DNA from: Podarcis liolepis
Taxonomy: Eukaryota
Assembly (NCBI GenBank): GCA_965112155.1
Contig: OZ218100.1
DNA: 64,000 nt
Strand: one strand, 5' to 3'
Position numbers and translations under genes: made by a program
In this document: positions 2,971 to 33,443 of the stretch, in pieces
Numbering within the stretch: the stretch's first letter is position 1
Layout of the letters: every line of letters begins with the position of its first letter
Notes under the pieces: model-generated
Seen by the model: the letters and a program-made list of their open reading frames with translations, nothing else
What the model was told of the DNA's origin: nothing
The model's database searches: none

Positions 2971-5745
2971 TAAAAGAATAATTAACTGTATGTGATCTCA
3001 GCTTTATGCCATCCCTGTCTAGACATCCTCTAGTTTCTGACTTCCAGCAAGCATAGTTTCAAGTTGTTTGCCATTGTGAACACTGGAAATGTGCTCAGTA
3101 CAGTATTCTGGATTGGAGGCTATATTCCATGCTTCAACCCATGATCACTGCCAAACATGAATTTTTTATTAAATTTGTTCTATGAATACTATAGAGCTTG
3201 GAAGACAACAAGCTTGTGTATATTCTCTGTATAAGGCTTGGTGACTACAAAGTTTATACCAAATCATAGGAACTCTAAAATGCTTATTTGAGCTCAGAGC
3301 ATTAGATCGCTTTTCTATTTTCCCTCCACCATTTACAAGAAGCTTATTGATCTATTACAGATTGCTTCACCATAAAGTACTTCCCTCACATCATCCAGAA
3401 GGAAAAGTAAGAAATGTGGGTCATAAAATCGTAAAGATAGAAGACCAGGGGGAAGATGGTAGGAAGCACAAGGAAAATGGAAGTGTGCAGTTGGTGTAAA
3501 TAGAGGAATGCAAAAAACAACAACACACAGTGTAAGAAAAGCAAAGAAAATGGTGGAAAATGAAACAATGCATAAGTACTATTAAACGAAATTGCATGCA
3601 TAGCATCGAAACCCAAACCAATGTCCTCTTTCTCCATTCTCAAAACACAATCTTGCAATTTTTCTTGAGGATGGGCAGTTCAAAAGCACCTCAAAATAGT
3701 TCTGAGGACCCAAAATTGAAGTTATTTTAAACAACCCCTTTCTCCAAAAATGGTAAACATCCACTTTGCCCTCTTCCACCTTGTAATGTCTAGTGTAACA
3801 TCCAAATTGGGAAACTGCAATGCTAGACAGGGGGCTAGCATGAAAGATAGTTTGGAAACTTCAAATGGTTCAAAATGCAGTGGACAGAGTTTTAATGTGC
3901 TTTCTAGCTGCTAAGTAGTAGTTGTTCTGCACTTGAAAATTATGCTGTCCACCTGACACTGATGACTGGGTAGCAGAAACAGAATAGGCAGAGAATGACA
4001 GAAGGACAAAGGAATAATATAGGATGCTTTTTTGAAGTGCTACAATTACAAAAACAATACCTCAAACCACCAGTTGCTATGACATGTGGCCTCATACTCA
4101 GAACTGGCTCACCAGGTAGGATAGAGCTGCTATGCTAGCTTCTCTGCAGGTGGTTCACTGTTGCTTAGCGGAGTGAAGAGCGGGGAGATAGTTGTGAGGC
4201 TGGTGCGGTGCAAACACACCAAACAATCTGGCACTCCTGCACATACATTTTAATTGCATCAGCCTCTCTGCCACTGCACCCCTTCCTACCAGTAAGCAAG
4301 AGCAACATACTTGCCAGGAAGCTAGCATAATTCGACCATTTCCTTAGCTGACAAACAAAAGCTCACTCCCATCCTTTCCTCCTCATGTCTTGTTTTCCTT
4401 TTAGTTTTCTTGTTGCCTTTTTGAAATCAGGTTTTCAATAATTTCACAGAAATCCAAAACTGTAAAAATGTATGTATCAGAATGATATTTTCTTTTGTTG
4501 TGCACAACCTAAAAGGACACTGTGTATTTTCCCTCTCCTTTAAAACACTCATTAGCTTTTACAAACAGGTTATCCAATTGTCAGGATTTTTTAAAAAATG
4601 CACTATTCTATTGAGTACGTTTTTGTTTTAGTGAGACCGAATCCTATGAAGTGGCGGGTGTTGAGGAAGTAGTTTTTATTTCAAGTGGTACTACCCTATA
4701 TTTCCATGACTTTGATTCATTGCTTTTTGGATGGAGTTAAAGTCAAGATCTTGCTGAAAGGTGTACTAGCTGTTAACTTCAGAGTGATTAATGGCAAGAC
4801 AAGATATCAGGTATCAGAGTTGAGAACCCATTAACTCAGGAGAAAACTGAAAAAGCCAGAGGGAAGTAACAAAAGGAGACCCGAATGCAATGTACTCCTC
4901 GATTGCATCTGCTTGATATGATCTTGAACTCCTGTTTAGTTGTCAAATGAATGTCACATTACTTGTTGCATGTTTTATTGCCTGATATGTCAGGTCTTTT
5001 CAACACACTGGAATATATGCATTTTGGCCTTAAACTAGAGAAATAATAGATACCTACAACAAACTAATGTGAAATCACTGTCTGCAGAGAATACAGATGT
5101 ACGGATCAGCTTATTTTCTGTTCTGTCTCAGTTTCACTCATGTTTAGTCATAATGTCTTTCTGTCCCATTTTCTGCAGATATTTAAAACATACACCCACT
5201 CATTTAAATTATACACACCTTTCCAAGCACTTCCCCCTAAAATATGTAACACATTTGGAATTTCAGAGAAGTGTGCAACTTGCCCATGTTCTGATCTGTG
5301 TATAAACCCAGAAACTGTAAATTTGGTCAGTTCATTTTAAAATGCAGTTTGAACCAAAGTCTCCTCCATCTAGCAAGGAACCTTTAACTACACATTTACA
5401 AAAGTAAATAAAAACTGTACTCCACAATTCAGTTAAAGAATCTGGACTAAGCAACTGATTCACAAGGGGACAATGAACTGGGTTCATACATGCAAAGGCA
5501 ATCCCCAAGGCAATCCCTCTCAACTGCCCCTTTTTGCAACAACTACAATAATTGAAATCACAGTGGAAATATTATCAAAGTAGTGTCGCTTTGCCATCAA
5601 GCTCCTCCCTCCCTCTGCTATTACCTGGCAATAAGGGCAGGGGAGAAATTAAATTTGGTTTGCATTTTACTGACTCGGTAAACCAAACCACAACTTTTTT
5701 TTCAAAATTCACACTTTCCCGAAGTTTCTATATTTTGTAACAGAA

Positions 5746-10578: not shown

Positions 10579-11471
10579 CAGTGGTGCCCCGCAAGACGAA
10601 CGCCTCGCAAGATGGAAAACCCGCTAGACGAAAGGGTTTTCCGTTTTGGAGGCACTTCGCAAAACGAATTTCCCTATGGGCTTCCTTCGCAAGACGAAAG
10701 CCCATAGGGAAATCTCCGGGACAGCGGGGAAGCGCAGCGCGTCTTCCCCACTGTCCTCGGACCTCCTCCAAAGGCTGGCGGTGGGGCGGAGAGACCTCCT
10801 CCCGCCGCCAGCCTTCGGAAGGCTGCTCCGAAGCCTGGTGGCGGGAGGAGGTCTCTCTGCCCCACCGCCAGCCTTCGGAAGGCTGCTCCAAAGCCTGGCG
10901 GCGGGAGGAGGTCTGTCCGCCCCACCGCCAGCCTTCGGAAGGCTGCTCCGAAGACTGGTGGCGGGAGGAGGTCTCTCCATCCCACTGCCAGCCTTCGGAA
11001 GGCTGCTCCGAAGCCTGGCGGTGGGGCGGAGAGACCTCCTCCCGCCACCAGGCTTCGGAAGGCTCCTCCGAAGGCTGGCGGTGGGGCGGAGAGACCTTCT
11101 CCCCGCGCCAGCCTTCGGATGGCTGTCCTGAAGACTTGTGGTGGGAGGAGGGTTTTCCTTCCCACTGCCAACATTCAGAATGCTGTTCTGAATGTTGGCG
11201 GTGGGGAGGAAAAACCCTCCTCCCACCGCAAGCCCCGGGAACAGAGGAGAAGCGCTGCGCCCCTTCCCCTCTGTTCCCGTACCTGTCCTGAAGGCTTGCG
11301 GTGGGGAGAAAAGCCCTTCTCCGCACCGCCAGCCTGGCAAGCAGTTTCCATAGGAACGCATTAATTGATTTTCAATGCATTCCTATGGGAAACCGTGCTT
11401 CGCAAGACGAAAAACTCGCAAGAAGAAAAAACTTGCGGAACGAATTAATTTCGTCTTGCGAGGCACCACTG
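10579..11471. mobile_element. Tc1/mariner-pogo-type non-autonomous transposon with an internal GC-rich minisatellite
   Basis: TIRs CAGTGGTGCCCCGCAAGACGAA / TTCGTCTTGCGAGGCACCACTG; TA at both flanks. Confidence 0.9.
10770..11235. repeat. ~60-bp GC-rich tandem repeat (~8 units) inside the MITE
   Basis: Recurring ...CCGCCAGCCTTCGGAAGGCTGCTCCGAAG... with a 60-nt period; explains the overlapping low-complexity ORFs on both strands. Confidence 0.9.
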
Positions 11472-23961: not shown

Positions 23962-24075
23962 CTGCAGCATATTTATTGCACTGGCATCTGTAAGTATTTG
24001 AAGAAACCCTGTGGCAACTGCCACTGTAGCAACTATGTGGCTGGCACTCACCAATGATTTCCGAACAGTTCTTTC
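23962..24075 (-). CDS. EYS: EYS second coding exon (EGF-like repeat; equivalent to human exon 5)
   Basis: 114 nt, phase 1/1, polypyrimidine tract and AG acceptor, GTAAGG donor. Translates (G)KNCSEIIGECQPHSCYSGSCHRVSSNTYRCQCNKYAA(G), matching human EYS GKNCSEIIGQCQPHVC.... Not in the supplied ORF track. Confidence 0.93.
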
Positions 24076-24502
24076 CTTATGAAAACAAAGAGGGGGGAAA
24101 GAGAAATGAATAGAAGACTCGCCTTCCCCAAAAAGATGCTTCCCCCAAAAGTCCAGAGAATAATTAGTAATCCTTCAACTAAACATTATCAAAAGCAGCA
24201 CAGTTTCCACACAGTTCTTCCCATATGTAAATTAAGTATATCCTGATCATCACTGCTTAACGGCATGTTTATGCCATCTCCTAAATCAAATCTCGAGCTG
24301 GTGTAGGACAATATTACAATACATATCAAAGTATTAAAACACAGAAAGAATGGGAATACTAAGGCAGAGTTAACGAATTGCCTAAACATCAATAACAAAT
24401 TGCCTAAACATCAATAATGTGAGTGCTTGCTTAAACACATGGGGAAGATGATTCCATTGTGTGGGTGCCTCAGCATAAAAGTCCTTTCCTCCAGTGGCTG
24501 CT

Positions 24503-24716
24503 AAGGCGTGTTCTCCTTCAAATGAGAGCACGTGTTGCGGTTGGGCGAATACAAGCCACCCTGCTGTTATCAGGCAGTTGAATGAGGTAGAACCCTTTAA
24601 AGGGTTAATTGAGTTACTGGGGAGTTTAGCATGTTGCCAATTAGGAAGGAAGGGCAGAGGCTATAAATACAGGTTACCCACGTTGGGGCGTCCTCTTGGC
24701 CTCTGCATCGGATCAC
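24503..24716 (+). repeat. Split direct repeat A1 (214 bp)
   Basis: Identical by eye to A2 at 30900-31113. Confidence 0.95.
24637..24700 (+). promoter_or_regulatory. Putative Pol II promoter in repeat A
   Basis: CCAAT 24637-24641, TATAAAT 24662-24668, pyrimidine-rich initiator-like CCTCTT about 30 nt downstream; duplicated in A2. Confidence 0.6.
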
Positions 24717-25608
24717 GGAGCAGATCGTCTGGAGCCTGGTTGTATTTGAGTATTTAAGAACTTTGCTTATCTGCTGCTGATTTCTTTGAGCCTTATAACC
24801 TTCTGTTCCTCCCCCTTTATTTATTTAATTTCCTTTCCACATTTTTTCCTCCCTCCTTCCGTTAATTCTCTCTTTTGGTTTAGTTTAATCTGAATTAGCA
24901 GCGGCTTTATTGGGAGCGGGAGTCCCCACCCCCCCCAGCCCGGGGGAGGCTTTCCTCCCGGCGTCGGGGAAGCGCCCGCGCTTTCGCCAGGCCGCGGCCC
25001 GCCCTCCCCCCGTCCTTAGCTCCGTAGCGCGGAGCGTCTCCGAGAGCCGCCCCCCCGCCCTCCTCGCGTCTCCCACACTTGGGCCTACCTGGAGCCGCGT
25101 CGGGCGGCTGGATTCGGGCCCACTTTTGCCGGAGGTCGTTGCCGCGTCGGCGGCGTCCCGTCCTCCGGTGCTGTGTCCTTGCGGCCGCGCGGCGGCGGCG
25201 AGGAGCGCGCTCCACCGGGGATTTCTTCAGCGGGCCCCTTTTGACCTAACAGGCCCACCCGCCTCGCGTTAGCGCGCGGGGGGGGGGCACATACAGGCCC
25301 GGTTCGCTAGCGCTGCGGCCTGGGCGCGCTCGCGGCCTGGTCGCAATTGCTAAGTCATTCCGGTTAGCTCCGCCATTTTAGGTAGCGTCTTGCCGACGGA
25401 GGCTCCCCCTGGTGGCTAGGATTGGTACTGCGCCTCAGTTGCTTTTCTTGAAGAGCTAGGCCGCACCCCCTACCCCTCGCCCCCTGCTGGTTGCTAGTAT
25501 ATTACGCTTTACTAATTGCTGTTTGGTAGTGATTGCTTTGCGTTTGGGCCTGCTGAGGCCTCCTGAGTTGGCAACAGTGCTCAGGACTGTTGTCCTGGCT
25601 TGGTTTGT

Positions 25609-25642
<34 letters not shown>
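25609..25642. repeat. (GATA)n microsatellite in the retrotransposon 5' leader
   Basis: Direct reading. Confidence 0.95.
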
Positions 25643-25820
25643 CTTCGATAGTCCGATACACCTGGCTGTTGCCTGGCCAAGAGACAGTCTTTATTCCGAG
25701 CTGCGGCCTAGATTTCACTCGAAGGCCCAACAGTGCTTTTTTGGTTGGAGGTTGCTAGCTTCATTTTGCCGTAGCGTTTGAATATTGACTTGGTTTTGAT
25801 TTTATTTCCTGCTAGCAGGT

Positions 25821-27347
25821 ATGGCTCCAAAGAAAGCTGCTGCGCGCTCCAGCTCTGTCATCGCGTCAAAGCGGCCTATTAGAGGTCCATCCCAAGCGCT
25901 TCGCTCTCCCCCCACCAACCAACCGGTGGGGCGAGTGCAATCGTTGGTAGCAGGCATGGCAGGTGACCCGGTGGCTCTATCTCGCTTCGCAGCTGACTTG
26001 GACCTTTTTCTGCAACATCGTTCTTCTCAACCATCAACATCTGGAGGGCTGCCCTCTTCAGCAGTGGTGCCGCCTCCGGCTTCATCGTCATCTAGCGAGG
26101 ATGAGGGAGAAGGACCGTCATCACAGGGTTTAATTAGGAACCCACAGTCATCCCAGTCTCCTGGCTTACCTGTAATACAGAACCGGCCTCGGAGGGCAGG
26201 CCGCCTGTCCAGGCGGGCCTCTGAAAAGAGTGCACCATTGGCTGTGTCCACTCGCCGGCGCACGCCTGCTCGGTCTCCACCGGTTGTGGCATCCGGGTCT
26301 GGTATCTCACATGTTGTCTCTATGCAGTCTGTTTCAGTTCCGTCCCAGCAGCATCCTGAATCGGAGTCCTCTGTCGAAGACAGTCTCCCGGTCCCCGCCA
26401 GGAAGTCCATGGGAGGGAAGCGTCGCCACAAGAGGGTGTCTCGAAAACGTGCAAAGCGCAGGAAGGACGACTCCTCTTCCTCTACTTCGGGTACGTCTTC
26501 CTCTAGCTCTGATGATGAGGGTACTCACTTGGAACTTTATTGGGGTTTTGGTGAATCGGCTTCAGGGCTTCCTAGGTGGGCTTGGGAACGCAGGTCCAAC
26601 GCTCATCGGGCAAAGTATGGGGCTGTTCAGGAATGCAGGGATGGTGTGTTGGTTCCCGACGTTAGAGTCTCAACCAATTCGGCCAGGGATATCATCCCAG
26701 GCTCACACTTGTCATCGAAATTGCGGTCCAGGATCTTAAATGGACGCTATGTAGACATTTTCAAATTGGCCCCGCCCTCTGAAGAGCAAGAAAAAGGAAG
26801 TGCTTCCACCAAAAAACGCTCAGGGGTTTCTGCGGCGGGTAGGTCCTTCGAACAGTGGCTCGACTGTTTTCAGGTCTTCGCCGGTATAGTCATGGCAGCT
26901 TATCCGCGTAGGTCCCTTCATTTGTTAGTTTATCTATCGATTGTGCGCTCTGCCTTTACCAAGGCGGGTGATAAAGCTGCAATTAAATACGATGAGAACT
27001 TTAGGCGCCGCGCGGCCAAGATCCCTTCTGCACGCTGGGATCGGAAAGATCTCGATGTGTGGACTACTTACGTCGCTCCGCTCATTGACAAAAAGGTACC
27101 GGAGCAGCAGAAACTGGGTGTCTCTACTTTTAGACCTGGCCGTCGATTGCCGTGTTGGGATTTTAACAGGACCTCATGTCAGCGTTCAACTTGTAGATTT
27201 GCGCACACCTGTGAGAAATGCAATGGATTGCATCCGGCTTCCTCTTGTTTTGGTGGACGGCGGCCCTTTCGTGGAGGAAAGGGGGGCTCCCAACAACCCC
27301 CCAAGTCAGTCCCCCCCACACCCTCAACCTCAGGAACAGCAAAATAA
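25821..27347 (+). CDS. gag: Ngaro Gag-like ORF1 (508 aa)
   Basis: S/P/R-rich N-terminus, basic cluster KRRHKRVSRKRAKRRK, core motifs RILNGRYVDIFKL / W..CF..F / KYDENFRR, C-terminal Cys/His finger CWDFNRTSCQRSTCRFAHTCEKCNGLHPASSC. Confidence 0.85.
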   Translation: MAPKKAAARSSSVIASKRPIRGPSQALRSPPTNQPVGRVQSLVAGMAGDPVALSRFAADLDLFLQHRSSQPSTSGGLPSSAVVPPPASSSSSEDEGEGPSSQGLIRNPQSSQSPGLPVIQNRPRRAGRLSRRASEKSAPLAVSTRRRTPARSPPVVASGSGISHVVSMQSVSVPSQQHPESESSVEDSLPVPARKSMGGKRRHKRVSRKRAKRRKDDSSSSTSGTSSSSSDDEGTHLELYWGFGESASGLPRWAWERRSNAHRAKYGAVQECRDGVLVPDVRVSTNSARDIIPGSHLSSKLRSRILNGRYVDIFKLAPPSEEQEKGSASTKKRSGVSAAGRSFEQWLDCFQVFAGIVMAAYPRRSLHLLVYLSIVRSAFTKAGDKAAIKYDENFRRRAAKIPSARWDRKDLDVWTTYVAPLIDKKVPEQQKLGVSTFRPGRRLPCWDFNRTSCQRSTCRFAHTCEKCNGLHPASSCFGGRRPFRGGKGGSQQPPKSVPPTPSTSGTAK

Positions 27348-28953
27348 GGTGCTGACTTCCTTGGCTCAGACTCCTATACGTCTGCCGGCCCTTAAAAAGT
27401 GGCTCAGGTTTTACCCAGATAGGGAGGCCGCTCGTTACCTGAGCGACGGTTTTTCTGTTGGTTTTCGGATTCCGGTAGCCAAGCCTCCCGTGGCTCGGAA
27501 TTCGTCTAATCAGAAATCAGTTCGTGAGTTGCCAGAAATTGCTCGAAGAAAGATCACAAAAGAGGTGGCTATGCACCGGATGGCTGGCCCCTTTTGTGCC
27601 CCTCCATTTCCTAAATTGCATGTTTCCCCACTGGGCATCGTGCCAAAGAAAGCCCCTGGTGAATTCCGTTTGATTCATAATTTATCACACCCTAGGGGTA
27701 CTTCAGTTAACGACGTGATTCCTCCAGAGCTTTGCTCAGTTAGGTATGCCTCTCTTGATCACGCGATCAAGATGATCCGGAAATTTGGACCAGCTGCGTT
27801 ATTGGCAAAATGCGACATAGAGTCGGCATTCCGTTTGCTGCCGATTCATCCGGAGGATTTCTGGCTGCTCGGTTTCCAGTTTGAGGGAAAATACTATTTT
27901 GACAAAGCCATGCCCATGGGCTGTTCTATAGCGTGCGCTGCTTTTGAATCTTTCAGTACCTTTTTGGAGTGGGCCCTCAAGCTGAAAACCGGGTTGGATG
28001 GGGTTACTCATTATTTGGATGATTTTTTATTGGCTTCTGATTGTAATACTGACAATTGCTCGGTTCTGTTGCAAGCTTTAGCGGCCCTTACTGAGGAATT
28101 GGGGGTCCCGTTAGCGGCAGAAAAGACTGAGGGTCCCTCGACTCAGCTCACGTATTTGGGTATCCTTTTGGATACGGTGTCTCAAACTTCTAGCTTGCCA
28201 AAGGTGAAGCTGGTGGCTTTGAAAAAGGTTATAGAGGAATTGCTTCCCTTAAAGAAAGTGTCCCTACTGCAGATCCAATCGCTGTTAGGTCACCTGAATT
28301 TTGCCTGTAGGGTGGTGGCCCCGGGCCGCCCCTTTTGCTCTCGTTTGGCTCGCCTCACGGTGGGCTTGAAGGCCCCGCATCATCGTGTTCGTCTTTCCAG
28401 GGAGGTGAGGGCTGATCTCAGCATATGGCTTGAGTTTTTGGAGGAATTCAATGGGGTATCGTTATGGCAAGACACTCTGAACTTGCAGAACGATTTTCAG
28501 GTGCACTCAGATGCTGCAGGGTCCCAGGGTTTCGGCCTATATTGGATGGGTAGGTGGTGTGCCAAGCGCTGGCCTCTTGACTGGCAGGGAACAGCCATTA
28601 CGCGGGACCTAACTTTTCTTGAGTTCTTTCCCATTGCAGTGGCAGTGCACTTGTGGGTCGAAGAGTTCAGGGACCGACGTGTCTGCTTCTGGACTGATAA
28701 CCAGGCGGTGGTGGACGTGCTGGCCAAGCTGTCGTCCCGCTCTCCTAGGGTGTCGGCCCTTTTGCGGGCTTTTGTTTTACATTGTTTACGTTATAATATA
28801 GTCTTTTCCGCTCGTTTTGTTCCGGGGGTGTCTAACGAAATTGCCGATGCTCTGTCCCGTTTTCAGATGGAGCGGTTCAGACTTCTGGTTCCAGAGGCTC
28901 GGAAACGTCCGGAATGTTTCCCGGAACATCTCTGGAGCCTTGGCAGGAGCTAG
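26941..28953 (+). CDS. pol: Reverse transcriptase-RNase H (ORF2); true start uncertain
   Basis: RT motifs FRLIHNLS, KCDIESAFR, MPMG, YLDD; RNase H SDAAG, LEFFPI, TDN, NEIADALSR; overlaps gag in the +1 frame. Confidence 0.95.
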   Translation: MCALPLPRRVIKLQLNTMRTLGAARPRSLLHAGIGKISMCGLLTSLRSLTKRYRSSRNWVSLLLDLAVDCRVGILTGPHVSVQLVDLRTPVRNAMDCIRLPLVLVDGGPFVEERGAPNNPPSQSPPHPQPQEQQNKVLTSLAQTPIRLPALKKWLRFYPDREAARYLSDGFSVGFRIPVAKPPVARNSSNQKSVRELPEIARRKITKEVAMHRMAGPFCAPPFPKLHVSPLGIVPKKAPGEFRLIHNLSHPRGTSVNDVIPPELCSVRYASLDHAIKMIRKFGPAALLAKCDIESAFRLLPIHPEDFWLLGFQFEGKYYFDKAMPMGCSIACAAFESFSTFLEWALKLKTGLDGVTHYLDDFLLASDCNTDNCSVLLQALAALTEELGVPLAAEKTEGPSTQLTYLGILLDTVSQTSSLPKVKLVALKKVIEELLPLKKVSLLQIQSLLGHLNFACRVVAPGRPFCSRLARLTVGLKAPHHRVRLSREVRADLSIWLEFLEEFNGVSLWQDTLNLQNDFQVHSDAAGSQGFGLYWMGRWCAKRWPLDWQGTAITRDLTFLEFFPIAVAVHLWVEEFRDRRVCFWTDNQAVVDVLAKLSSRSPRVSALLRAFVLHCLRYNIVFSARFVPGVSNEIADALSRFQMERFRLLVPEARKRPECFPEHLWSLGRS

Positions 28954-29837
28954 TTTTTCAGGGAGTAATGGCTTCTATTTCTCCTTCTACTCTCAGGTCA
29001 TACACTAAAGCATGGGCTGATTTTTTGTCCTTTACATATCAGTCAGCCGAGGAGCAAAGGGGGGCTTCCCCCTCTACTTCTCAGGTGCTAAGATATTTGG
29101 CGCACCTGTTTCAGTTAGGACGTGCAGCTAAGACGCTAAGAATTCAGGCAGCTGCCATTGCCTTTTTCTGCAAAGCTTATTTCGACAAAGATCCTTGCGC
29201 TAAATTTGCCGTGCGTAAGGCCCTTGAGGGATGGGGTAGGCTTTGTCCTTCCCAGCCAGCTACTAGGCACCCTATCTCATATGATTTGCTGTGCAAAATG
29301 CGCAAGGAGTTGAGGAAGGTTTGCTGGTCCAGGTATGAGGCTCGTCTTTTTTCTGCGGCCTTTTCTATTGCCTTCTTCGGAGCACTAAGGGTTGGTGAGC
29401 TCGTATGGGAGGAGCACAATAATGGCAGTTCTAGGGGATTATTGCTTCAGGATGCACAGCTATCTCCAGATGAGCTGAGGCTCCTCATTAGGAACTCAAA
29501 AACGGATCAGGACGGAAGGGGAGCCCTCATTCGTCTCCCGGCCACAAGGGAGGTGGGTCCGTGTCCGGTCAAAGATGTCAGGAGGTACTTGTCCATCCGG
29601 GCCCCGGGGGAAGGTCCACTGCTGCAGCACGAAGATGGGTCGCCTCTATCTAGGCGACAGTTTGCAAGGGTGATGCGGAAGGCCATTGCGGCTTGTGGTG
29701 ATTCTGCTAGTGATTTTGCCCCACATTCTTTCAGGATTGGGGCTGCCACGACGGCAGCGCATTGGGGCCTGTCTGCAGGCAGAATAAAGAATTTGGGTCG
29801 TTGGAAGTCGAATGCGTTTAGAGGCTATGTTCGCTAA
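28914..29837 (+). CDS. Tyrosine recombinase (phage-integrase family), 307 aa
   Basis: Catalytic set ALRVGEL (R), SKTDQ (K), HSFR (HxxR), GRW, terminal Y in FRGYVR. Confidence 0.95.
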   Translation: MFPGTSLEPWQELVFQGVMASISPSTLRSYTKAWADFLSFTYQSAEEQRGASPSTSQVLRYLAHLFQLGRAAKTLRIQAAAIAFFCKAYFDKDPCAKFAVRKALEGWGRLCPSQPATRHPISYDLLCKMRKELRKVCWSRYEARLFSAAFSIAFFGALRVGELVWEEHNNGSSRGLLLQDAQLSPDELRLLIRNSKTDQDGRGALIRLPATREVGPCPVKDVRRYLSIRAPGEGPLLQHEDGSPLSRRQFARVMRKAIAACGDSASDFAPHSFRIGAATTAAHWGLSAGRIKNLGRWKSNAFRGYVR

Positions 29838-29893
29838 CATGATGTTTTATATTTTGTTTCTCTATACCAGGTTTAGCAGCCGTACGCATATGG

Positions 29894-30445
29894 ATGGTGG
29901 GGCACAGTATCGTACATTGGGCCGGTGTTGGAGCCAGGCAGCTCAGATTGGGACCAGGTCTCGGCCTTCCTCCTCACGTGCGCGTATCTTGGCTGGCCAG
30001 AAGGGGAATGTCCTGGACTGAGTTTCTGCCACTGATTCGTAGGCAGCTAGCCGAGGAAGGGCCGCCCTCGGCCATTGTTGTGCAGTTGGGTGAGAACGAC
30101 CTGGTTTCTATGGACTGTGCTTCTTTACGTGCTGCTATCTTGGGTGATCTTGAAGTGCTGCGAGCAATGGTGCCGGCAACAAAAATTTTCTGGTCAAAAT
30201 TTTTGCAAAGGCGCAGTTGGAGAGGCAGTCGGTGCCCGACTGCCACCGAAAGGGCTAGGAAGCGGATCAATTCGGCAGTCTCAAAAAAGGTTTTTGAGTT
30301 GGGAGGTGACGTGATTTCTCATCCTGAGATTCTGGCTAGGGATGAATCTCTTTTCAGGGATGATGGGGTGCATCTTTCGGCTTTAGGGAATAAAGCGTGG
30401 CTGGGTGCTGTGGTGGCTAAGCTAAGGTCTTGGCTGGGTTCGTGA
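29894..30445 (+). CDS. SGNH/GDSL-family hydrolase (esterase) ORF; probably a spliced exon starting at 29871
   Basis: Blocks VGHS (Ser), RRG, QLGEND (Asn), DGVH (His). Confidence 0.88.
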   Translation: MVGHSIVHWAGVGARQLRLGPGLGLPPHVRVSWLARRGMSWTEFLPLIRRQLAEEGPPSAIVVQLGENDLVSMDCASLRAAILGDLEVLRAMVPATKIFWSKFLQRRSWRGSRCPTATERARKRINSAVSKKVFELGGDVISHPEILARDESLFRDDGVHLSALGNKAWLGAVVAKLRSWLGS

Positions 30446-30475
30446 GTGGTTTGGCGGCGAGCTTAAGGCTCCATA

Positions 30476-30901
30476 TGGCGGTTAGGCATTGGTTTAAAAT
30501 TGGTTGGGAGGGGTAAGTGCCTACCCCTCCAATGGTGGTGCGAAAAGGGAATTCCGTTAAAGGAATCCAGGGGCTTGCCATTCTTTCGTCCTTGTCCCCG
30601 GAGTCGGACCTGGGCCGTGCAAGCCCCACAGGAACATGAGGGTGAGAGGTGTGGGACTGTTACCCAGCCTCACCTTCTCACCCAATACTTGTTTCCCAAG
30701 CTGGCTTCCGCTGGAATCCGGAAGACCAGCCCTGTCCCTGGGCAAGGACAGATAGTCTTAACCAATGCCTAAGCAACCACTCACGTATTTGTATTTTAAT
30801 AAAGTTGTGGCCAAAAATCATGCCAAAAACCTTAAACAAAAATTAATGTGTGAAGTGTGAATTATTTTGGTGAGGGTGGCTTTGTGGGACTCAACACGCA
30901 A
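30476..30901 (+). repeat. Split direct repeat B1 (426 bp)
   Basis: Matches B2 (offset 811) with two substitutions seen: 30541 C / 31352 T and 30554 C / 31365 A. Confidence 0.95.
30798..30803 (+). terminator. Poly(A) signal in B1
   Basis: AATAAA followed by GT/T-rich downstream sequence. Confidence 0.6.
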
Positions 30902-31113
30902 GGCGTGTTCTCCTTCAAATGAGAGCACGTGTTGCGGTTGGGCGAATACAAGCCACCCTGCTGTTATCAGGCAGTTGAATGAGGTAGAACCCTTTAAAGG
31001 GTTAATTGAGTTACTGGGGAGTTTAGCATGTTGCCAATTAGGAAGGAAGGGCAGAGGCTATAAATACAGGTTACCCACGTTGGGGCGTCCTCTTGGCCTC
31101 TGCATCGGATCAC
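30900..31113 (+). repeat. Split direct repeat A2
   Basis: Identical to A1; contains CCAAT 31034-31038 and TATAAAT 31059-31065. Confidence 0.95.
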
Positions 31114-31286
31114 CCGCCCACCCTCCCTTTTAAAGGGGGGGTTTCTTGGTTATTGACCTTGCTATGCCTGTCATGGGGTCGTTCGCCTTGGTGCGGGGGC
31201 CTGGTAGGAATTTACCATTTGGCTGATTGGCTGGTGCCATTTGGGTTTCGCCTACTACGTAGCAAATAAGTCACAACTTGTAAGGT
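31114..31286 (+). ncRNA. Unique A2-B2 spacer; candidate structured RNA element
   Basis: Nested complementary segments, e.g. TTGCTATG/CGTAGCAA and TGGTAGG/CCTACTA; no meaningful ORF. Confidence 0.45.
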
Positions 31287-31712
31287 TGGCGGTTAGGCAT
31301 TGGTTTAAAATTGGTTGGGAGGGGTAAGTGCCTACCCCTCCAATGGTGGTGTGAAAAGGGAATTACGTTAAAGGAATCCAGGGGCTTGCCATTCTTTCGT
31401 CCTTGTCCCCGGAGTCGGACCTGGGCCGTGCAAGCCCCACAGGAACATGAGGGTGAGAGGTGTGGGACTGTTACCCAGCCTCACCTTCTCACCCAATACT
31501 TGTTTCCCAAGCTGGCTTCCGCTGGAATCCGGAAGACCAGCCCTGTCCCTGGGCAAGGACAGATAGTCTTAACCAATGCCTAAGCAACCACTCACGTATT
31601 TGTATTTTAATAAAGTTGTGGCCAAAAATCATGCCAAAAACCTTAAACAAAAATTAATGTGTGAAGTGTGAATTATTTTGGTGAGGGTGGCTTTGTGGGA
31701 CTCAACACGCAA
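31287..31712 (+). repeat. Split direct repeat B2 (element 3' end)
   Basis: Copy of B1; ends ...CAACACGCAA; AATAAA at 31609-31614. Confidence 0.95.
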
Positions 31713-33291
31713 CCACACTTCCATAAGCTGTGGCATTACCAGGAGTGCCTCAACAGTTGAGGCAGGGTTGTGCAGGGCAGTAAGGAGAAAGGTGTTTCTT
31801 CAGGTATCCTGATCTCAAGTTGTTGGCACACCATACCAATTATGCACCTCCAAAAAGAAGCAGGCTTCATCATTGTACATGATCTGCCCTAACCATCTTG
31901 CATTAGAGGTAGATGCTATCAGAACATTGTGGGACTGGCCATGCAAAAGAAGTTGCAGCCATGCCACTGCTCCAGAAAAGATACAAATAATCAAATCCAA
32001 ATAAACTTGAAGAAAGGTTTTGTAGCGAAACACCACACATAAAATTGAACTTTCTGTTACCCCATGCTTGGAAGTGATCAACAGGAAATGGTTTCCACTA
32101 CCATTATGCCATGTTTGTGAACAACTCATAGGCATATAGGATACTTCCAAAGACTACTTTTGGAAACAGAAAGCGAGTAGATTCTGGAAGTCAGTTCTTA
32201 TAGCAAACAGTTCAAGCCTAAACATGTCTACTCAGACTCAAGCGTCACTAAATTCAATAGGGCAATCCCAAGTCAGCATGCTTGTTAGGAGTAGCTAACA
32301 TGGTGCCTTCCATATGTTGTTGGAATCTAACTCTTGTCAGTCCCAGATAGCATGACCAAGGGCCCACTAACATTCAGTGGGCCATAGGTTCCTCATCGCT
32401 GTTTACAAGATGCTTATAAGGTAAATGCTCTAAATTTAGCAGGAAACAACCTTCAAATATTTGAATATAAGACACCTTCTAATATTTATTTTTCAGCATG
32501 ATTTAACAGCTGACTGGAAATGCAGACAGTTTTAGGATGAATTCTGCTTAAACATGCTGCTTACTGGAAATTACCGATCATAAATTGCTTGTGCTTTTAC
32601 AGCATATGGGACTAAATACCGTATAATTATGCTTGTCATTTGAATTGTTGCTATACTGTTATTCACACTTGAGCAATTATTGCTTTTTTTGAAAAACAAA
32701 AAAATAAAAGTATGAGAACCATTGTTCTCTTGCTCACACCTGTGAGCTACAACCCAAAATCAAATGTTTTAATCTCACTGCCTTCTTTTCTTCCCACGAA
32801 GGTTGTTCAGGTTTTGCCTATAATGCTACTGCAGTCTATTAAATAGCTCTCATTGTGCCTGACTCAGCTGGTTCCTAAAATTTTCAGTACTGCTCTTACT
32901 GAAGTGATTGAGAATCCTTCTTTGGGCTTTTAAATGAAGCTGGGTCAAGCTCAATTTTTAGACTGAGTTCATTTGGAACAGGCACTGAAAGAATCCATAC
33001 TGTGCCTGCCTACATGTTTTCAATTCATTCTAAAAGAAATCCTGTGTCACTTTTCTGAGGAGATTTGGTTCTAATTGTACTACAATTATTTATAAAGGAT
33101 GCTTTATTATCCTCAAGATAGCAACTAAAATTATTTCTACCTTTGAGTGTTTGGGATTAGGAGAAATTATCTCGGGTTCTTTTTATTGTTGCTGCTGTTA
33201 ATAATCTTCATGTAGATTTCAGGACACTTTCATATGTTACCATGAAGATATCTTACTTATTTTTACAATTTAGAATGGTCCAGAAGTAAAG

Positions 33292-33443
33292 ACCAAACCC
33301 TGGTCGGAGCCTTGTGCTCATGAATGGGCTTATAAATGGTCAAAGCATGGTCTGGCATTGTACTTGAACCAAACCCTGGTCGGAGCCTTGTGCTCATGAA
33401 TGGGCTTATAAATGGTCAAAGCATGGTCTGGCATTGTACTTGA
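33292..33443. repeat. Perfect 76-bp tandem duplication
   Basis: ACCAAACCCTGGTCGGAG...GTACTTGA occurs twice, followed by the microhomology ACAAACCC. Confidence 0.95.

Follow-up and report, generated by a model that had tools for sequence, protein, structure and literature searches.

Priming of reverse transcription in the DIRS order of retrotransposons is stated to be unknown in PMC7192593, which says the same of the DIRS-1 primer and cites a 3′ hairpin proposed for this role. The vertebrate Ngaro layout, as given in PMC9210276, is A1-ORFs-B1-A2-B2, with gag, reverse transcriptase (RT)/RNase H, tyrosine recombinase (YR) and SGNH frames. The term 'secondary structure' does not occur in that paper, which includes the Xenopus element DIRS-53_XT, and PMC4157794 served for classification only. 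A literature search on RNA structure or priming in Ngaro and DIRS elements, with the founding Ngaro papers outside its range, gave no account of the fold described here. This fold, in repeat B of a Ngaro element of Podarcis liolepis, is a cis-acting RNA structure that is apparently uncatalogued, and it belongs to an element family that is already known. It would bear on the priming step, and we infer its function from the evidence below.

Organization of the host element

The window is the whole 64,000-nucleotide stretch of DNA that was analysed (assembly GCA_965112155.1, contig OZ218100.1), and all positions refer to it. The host of the fold, at 24503-31712, is an SGNH-bearing Ngaro tyrosine-recombinase retrotransposon. 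It contains, in order, A1, a gag-like ORF, RT/RNase H, tyrosine recombinase, SGNH hydrolase, B1, A2, a 173-nt spacer and B2.

24503..24716, plus strand: repeat A1, the 5′ end of the element; 214 nt, 100% identical to 30900-31113
24662, plus strand: TATA-like TATAAATA, within A1
25821..27347, plus strand: gag-like ORF, assigned by position in Ngaro elements (PMC9210276)
26929..28953, plus strand: RT/RNase H frame, stop to stop; Pfam RVT_1, E 1.8e-13 on 27346-28953
28836..29837, plus strand: tyrosine recombinase frame; Phage_integrase, E 3e-5, below the Pfam cut-off
29843..30445, plus strand: SGNH hydrolase frame; Lipase_GDSL_2, E 1e-5, below the Pfam cut-off
30476..30901, plus strand: repeat B1; two differences from 31287-31712
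30860..30965: imperfect palindrome at the B1-A2 junction, AA core 30900-30901; z -4.8 for the tile 30800-30999; also folded as DNA
30900..31113, plus strand: repeat A2; 100% identical to A1
31114..31286, plus strand: non-repeated conserved spacer; candidate ENE-like loop 31204-31255, 5′ arm of the predicted S0 clamp 31270-31279
31287..31712, plus strand: repeat B2, with the second copy of the domain; AATAAA 31609-14, S0 3′ arm 31613-31622

The split direct repeats (A1..B1-A2-B2) are those of Ngaro elements, and RT/RNase H is followed by YR and SGNH as in the vertebrate type, the latter two on matches below the Pfam cut-offs. A methyltransferase domain, which would mean PAT, had no Pfam match in the four frames scanned. 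The Pfam search of the gag-like ORF returned zero matches, and RNase H has no separate match of its own within the RT/RNase H frame. The second copy of the fold lies 811 nt downstream of the first.

The empty-site joint 24502>31711, seen in a single contig of run X1 with two ambiguous letters, fits an insertion at the AA core that duplicated no longer stretch. The long palindrome around this core is a candidate recombinase site, into which single-stranded DNA could fold.

The 5′ leader of the element carries an AGAT microsatellite (25594-25651). Elsewhere, the window has an array of 60-nt units at 10763-11205, each with an internal inverted repeat, an exact tandem duplication of 76 nt at 33292-33443, and repeats that we take to be Sauria-SINE-like.

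Structure of the fold in B1

30482..30772, plus strand: multibranched RNA domain closed by P1 and holding P2-P7
30482-30494/30760-30772, plus strand: P1, exact reverse complements
30507-15/30522-30, plus strand: P2, exact reverse complements
30551-55/30562-66, plus strand: P3, exact reverse complements, with a GUUAAA loop
30570-78/30619-27, plus strand: P4, exact reverse complements, with an invariant U.G pair 30589:30614
30700-10/30719-30, plus strand: P6, exact reverse complements
30732-37/30746-51, plus strand: P7, exact reverse complements

The initial annotation, made from the sequence, had proposed a domain at 30480..30775 that is closed by a 13-bp helix, starts almost at the B boundary and ends about 25 nt before AATAAA. 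The arms of P1 are exact reverse complements, P1 starts 6 nt inside B1, and it ends 25 nt upstream of AATAAA (30798-30803). All of the stems listed there are found in the sequence, the main ones in their proposed places. The stem GGTGAG..TGGG/CCCA..CTCACC (P5) is present, but the predicted fold favours another register for it, pairing GGGTGAG (30640-46) with CTCACCC (30677-83). The proposed limits proved too narrow, as two elements described below, P0 and H0, lie outside them. The suggestion that the RNA defines the repeat holds for the 5′ edge of B; at the other end, B continues for about 130 nt beyond the fold, through the poly(A) site and up to the recombination junction.

On the plus strand, a 296-nt segment has a minimum free energy of -135.8 kcal/mol (z -5.89), and 0 of 200 shuffles are as low. 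The strand is not given by energy alone, because the reverse strand folds as well (z -7.05). Among 200-nt tiles over 24200-32000, plus-strand z values of -2.8 or lower are confined to 30600-31000 and 31400-31600. Two coding tiles, 27800-27999 and 30200-30399, have minus-strand z values of -4.2 and -3.7 (25 shuffles only).

Conservation and covariation among families

The genome examined (1.57 Gb) has both P1 arms, 230-290 nt apart, at 3981 places, with 0 in controls. It has 1287 SGNH candidates, and the best 150 of these span 100% to 48% identity. Elements with both B repeats numbered 55 as collected, 54 after one was skipped and 33 at 96% identity; 32 were aligned, by sequence only, with L044 omitted for its internal duplication. 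This element belongs to a family (L044-L046, L048, L051) in which the P6 segment is duplicated (B of 449 nt); it still folds and has spread.

With the helices of the window imposed on the alignment, 87.5% of the cells pair, as compared to 34-56% for slid controls. Double changes are found at 33 of the 82 pairs in the 32 young elements, all of them paralogous families within one genome, and 0 of 500 shuffles reach so many. The count of further pair types is not above that of shuffles (69 vs 73), and P5 aligns poorly between clades (68-76% paired). As relatedness inflates covariation counts, a tree-based count was used. It gives 14 compensatory events (same-branch Watson-Crick swaps) over 75 pairs, distributed over P1-P7, against 1.4 ± 1.2 expected and a maximum of 8 in 2000 re-pairings. 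RNAalifold, run unaided on the 16 nearer elements, returned the same architecture, and family representatives have z values of -3.0 to -6.8 in 12/12 tested. The shuffle and covariation tests that the initial annotation had suggested both bear out the fold, and B is confirmed to hold a conserved, covarying structured RNA.

Distant families have P6 and P7 reduced or missing. The P3 hairpin is present in 53/54 elements, its GUUAAA loop in 47/54 and the P4 GUCC in 54/54. P1 also persists and is nearly invariant, with 9 of its 13 pairs free of any variation. The base of the fold lies at the B boundary even in families whose SGNH proteins are only ~48% identical to that of the window. Protein and motif scans of metagenomes and a viral scan gave 0 homologues outside this genome.

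Two candidate kissing loops (P2 loop-P5 loop, and P3 loop-UUUAAC) were rejected on inspection, as they fit single families only. A group I S-like AUAGUC was also set aside, being missing in one family and having no R partner. A cluster of many distant-clade copies with open SGNH frames is found on contig G000:C20.

Strand and RNA evidence

The evidence leans towards a fold that acts in plus-strand RNA. The U.G pair is invariant (32/32), P2 and P6 show GC/GU/AU series, and the plus strand has the lower energy in 11 of 12 families, the exception being the window's own. Strand-neutral tests, which are underpowered, are not significant (GU 8 vs AC 4, p 0.39; 10 vs 9 types).

30790..30824, plus strand: UGUA, AAUAAA (30798-30803) and putative cleavage near 30824; motifs in 54/54 elements

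RNA reads of a related species were mapped at 80% likeness onto the solo copy L143, which belongs to a distant family. They pile up at AATAAA on the plus strand (89 vs 8 and 80 vs 5, plus vs minus). Moreover, 41 and 28 reads, from this distant family and one sample, and possibly from a single locus, run into pure A ~20 nt past the hexamer. A DNA run on L143 is strand-symmetric and lacks those As. The poly(A) signal works in this related family; the reads do not tell which repeat is used. By homology, cleavage in the window would be located near 30824. At 88% likeness, no more than 92 and 81 RNA reads could be mapped to the window.

Elements flanking the domain

30441..30471, plus strand: P0 5′ arm and hairpin H0, a B1-specific context; 144 genome matches, 0 in the control
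30773..30785, plus strand: P0 3′ arm, by duplex folding

The unit is bigger than the domain described earlier, with P0 in both contexts and parts of the spacer at B2. The P0 helix (30442-51/30775-84, pair probability 0.74-1.0) adjoins P1 on its outer side. B supplies the 3′ arm of P0, and a 5′ arm is maintained independently ahead of each B repeat. The TGA stop of the SGNH frame falls within the 5′ arm at B1, and the H0 hairpin follows at 30459-71. P0 and H0 are misaligned between clades and were excluded from the 32-element covariation count, and P0 was assessed by duplex folding instead. The duplex at B1 has energies of -14.8 to -24.1 kcal/mol in 27/27 distinct contexts and is weaker at B2 (-7.3 to -18.3 kcal/mol). 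The two arms change in concert between clades.

The spacer diverges least of all segments when full elements are compared (0.135, against 0.20 in the fold and 0.34 in A), and its core motif has 2978 genome matches, with 0 in controls. It contains a two-sided, U-rich internal loop flanked by G-C pairs, with both motifs in 54/54 elements, and from its sequence this loop is a candidate ENE-like element. Allowing one G.U, a 10-mer near the end of the spacer (31270-79) can pair with 31613-22, which lies next to the B2 hexamer and overlaps its last bases. This pairing, S0, is predicted to form a 10-bp clamp next to AATAAA (-14.0 kcal/mol, pair probability 0.44-0.59). The full 10 bp are found in 47/54 elements, and S0 is near-invariant, with no covariation.

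The B boundary and the homogeneity of the repeats

The homology between B1 and B2 begins 2-9 nt upstream of P1 in 55/55 full elements; the distance of 9 nt comes with a mismatch or gap, and one family starts just 2 nt ahead of P1. As to a tRNA primer-binding site, whose mark would be a conserved, TGG-led complement of a tRNA 3′ end, most families have TGG at the start of B, the L095 family being an exception. The length of B in full elements is 359-452.

Substitutions between B1 and B2 were found at 38 of 7009 sites in the folded part, most of the loci having been picked for their B differences. The corresponding number for A1 and A2 is 23 of 3883 in 21 elements, with 4 of the 23 stemming from spurious alignment. 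A1 and A2 would share one template under any model. The rate for B1/B2 is not above that for A1/A2, and hence all of B is apparently re-made from one template each cycle. Among the differences listed (at most eight per element), no internal B1/B2 difference is common to several insertions. A copy junction, or switch point, is likely at P1. Since P1 is almost invariant, the junction can be narrowed down only to the stretch from -2 nt to where the 5′ arm ends.

Copy classes and short units

The 70 SGNH-anchored loci comprise 45 full elements, 24 that stop after B1 and one without B. An upstream B1 is missing for 60 of 61 spacer matches, which were chosen for diversity among the first 100 listed. 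In the two near clades, there are 440 B2-context copies, 144 B1-context copies and 74 exact B-A junctions. Short units are several-fold commoner than ORF-B units, although B is longer than A and more closely spaced. This excess would be expected if a short RNA were copied directly, and likewise if short inserts were better retained. A mosaic test of short copies gave 5/12 vs 4/32, a comparison confounded by age.

Multi-copy elements without an ORF of >250 codons keep the full A1..B1-A2-spacer-B2 frame with 0-1 B1/B2 differences, consistent with mobilization in trans. Twelve loci (L264-L269, L271-L274, L276, L277) are non-autonomous multi-copy chimeras, with terminal repeats of the near clade and a decayed interior of a distant family (RT about 32-55% and YR mostly 30-46% identical to the window, and no gag match). 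L270 (G000:C89) is an intact element with a tandem extra A-spacer-B and three copies of B. Permuted integrants (A-spacer-B-A-ORFs-B) were not found among 3 + 15 more loci inspected.

A proposed role in priming and closure

The reading that we favour, tentatively and at somewhat less than even confidence, is that the B fold is a plus-strand signal for the priming of reverse transcription and for closure at P1, marking where replication starts and ends. RT binding or priming, a candidate of the initial annotation, thus stays the likeliest of its proposals. The read-through RNA would consist of the end of A1, the ORFs, B1, A2, the spacer, B2 and poly(A), and the complete signal would be assembled only at spacer+B2, where S0 and the ENE-like loop may hold the tail. 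The conserved P3/P4 core would be bound by RT or Gag. Cleavage immediately 3′ of P1, for which RNase H is a plausible agent, as it reportedly cleaves the primer when Tf1 primes itself, would turn the P1 3′ arm into a primer, and first-strand copying would start at the 5′ edge of B2. RT would then jump from the RNA 5′ end into A2 and go on through A and the whole of B1. In sequence, the DNA end made in this way would match the P1 3′ arm, and it could anneal to the P1 5′ arm beside its own start, closing a circle that the recombinase would insert at the AA core. B2 would be rebuilt from B1 in every cycle, and the short RNA (A2-spacer-B2) would serve as a substrate too.

Priming from P1 is favoured by the covariation, by the position of P1 at the boundary in 55/55 elements and by B1 and B2 being nearly identical throughout. 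The lean towards the plus strand, the high conservation of the spacer and the excess of B2-context copies (440 vs 144) argue in the same direction, as does the whole frame retained by ORF-less multi-copy elements. The cut at P1, the start of the cDNA and the binding of RT are putative steps of the model. The poly(A) site, some 50 nt beyond P1, is the sole end of the RNA to have been observed, and as a result P1 priming requires an internal cut, which is unseen. The stronger P0 at B1 also speaks against priming at B2, as it suggests that B1 has some role of its own.

A bolder version, which we regard as improbable in its entirety, makes spacer+B2 an RNA machine of ~520 nt that would clamp its own poly(A), prime from P1 and circularize the cDNA by splinting its ends. 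The short RNA from the A2 promoter would be copied directly, so that the thousands of A-spacer-B units would be a mobile non-coding family. If true, split-repeat tyrosine-recombinase retrotransposons would have their first defined mechanism of priming. The fold as such would add a large uncatalogued vertebrate RNA motif. Exact, covariation-backed helices are located where the repeat begins, and natural variants exist in their thousands, along with intact young copies and derivatives that do not code. With these variants and helices, the priming and closure question is directly testable.

Alternative explanations

The fold may instead control 3′-end formation or stability, an unlikely explanation but one to be taken seriously. 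The identical repeats could differ in poly(A) use through their flanks, with a strong P0 and H0 at B1, and a weak P0, S0 and the ENE-like loop at B2, and the tail of the genomic RNA would be protected. The spacing to UGUA/AAUAAA is fixed, S0 overlaps the last bases of the hexamer, poly(A) reads occur at the homologous site in the related species, and the element must read through B1. The ENE of Evade is a precedent (PMC12501189). However, this explanation accounts neither for the start of homology at P1 nor for the conservation of the P3 loop, and the hexamer is predicted to be similarly accessible in B1 and B2. The role in 3′ stability that the initial annotation had listed fits the neighbouring spacer, with its ENE-like loop, better than B itself.

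A second explanation, on balance rather unlikely, concerns the C-tract at the other repeat edge.

31113..31127, plus strand: four C3 runs at the A2/spacer edge; in 42/54 elements

These runs, which are separated by single-base loops of varying sequence, are a candidate G-quadruplex on the minus (cDNA) strand, or a candidate Sp/KLF or poly(C)-binding site. The minus strand would be primed at the RNA 3′ end, and the plus strand at the 5′ edge of B1 and halted by the G-quadruplex at the start of the spacer. A B1-A2 splint would join the cDNA ends, as the internal junction copy does in DIRS-1 but in trans, and the fold would only recruit RT. Both repeat edges are explained in this way, since plus-strand priming at B1 gives the same boundary and repeat A ends 0-5 nt from a run of four C triplets in 19/19 elements with A1 recovered (the run is missing in 2 of the 21 elements of the A1/A2 comparison). 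The conserved, B1-specific H0 would have a place here as well. On the other hand, some inherited B1/B2 differences would be expected, and the rate in B is not above that in A. A conserved purine tract is absent (16/54), and 12 elements lack the C-tract motif, 10 of them from one family in which the tract is imperfect.

A nuclear export or packaging element for the unspliced RNA, like the MusD transport element (MTE), is a still less probable identity for the fold. In size, and in lying 3′ of the last ORF, the MTE resembles the fold. Its multibranched form is comparable too (PMC3362945), but the boundary would be unexplained, and no kissing loop or pseudoknot emerged from a search, of low power, for stacked covarying pairs outside the predicted fold.

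A self-cleaving or other ribozyme, also raised in the initial annotation, is very improbable. The fold is large and conserved with invariant unpaired bases, and self-priming would need a cut, but reads of the related species cross the P1 3′ arm uncut to poly(A). Rfam gave no match at the gathering score in 24000-32000 and six diverged loci, only weak ones far below threshold. The hammerhead core CUGANGA is found in 0/54 elements on both strands, and rough versions of the twister, pistol and group I R motifs in 0/54, while HDV-like and group II D5 motifs are sporadic. ARAGORN found 0 tRNA genes and no cloverleaf.

Equally doubtful is a role for the structure in minus cDNA in its single-stranded state, such as that of a terminator or of a folded substrate for the recombinase, since the invariant U.G and the GU intermediates would be C.A mismatches there, even though the minus strand folds well (z -7.05), the strand tests are not significant and the cDNA of DIRS-1 is single-stranded (PMC7192593).

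Comparison with known systems

DIRS-53_XT of Xenopus has the same repeats and gene order, but its B is 152 bp, compared to 359-452 here (PMC9210276), and the domain is therefore not universal, which counts against P1 priming.

DIRS-1 is also a YR retroelement, in which an internal junction copy (ICR) restores the ends. It has inverted repeats and a 14-nt hairpin, whereas the present element has direct repeats and a covarying domain of 290 nt (PMC7192593). In Tf1/Tj1, as proposed here, there is no tRNA primer and an intramolecular RNA duplex would supply one. Their primer is the 5′ end of the RNA, pairing downstream, and an integrase is used; in comparison, the candidate duplex here is near the 3′ end (PMC4600332).

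The Evade ENE has a U-rich internal loop, flanked by G-C pairs and located upstream of the 3′ repeat, and the similar loop here is in the spacer. B has no two-sided U-rich loop, the spacer loop of the window is poorer in U than those of its relatives, and a triplex would be hypothetical (PMC12501189). The MusD transport element is likewise a large structured cis-element of a retrotransposon RNA (PMC3362945).

Isolated A-spacer-B units have counterparts in SIRE of the T. cruzi element VIPER and in the solo AB repeats of Cafeteria Ngaro elements (PMC6681497, PMC8547959). The origin of those units is left open or put to recombination in these sources, whereas priming from P1 would predict their direct production.
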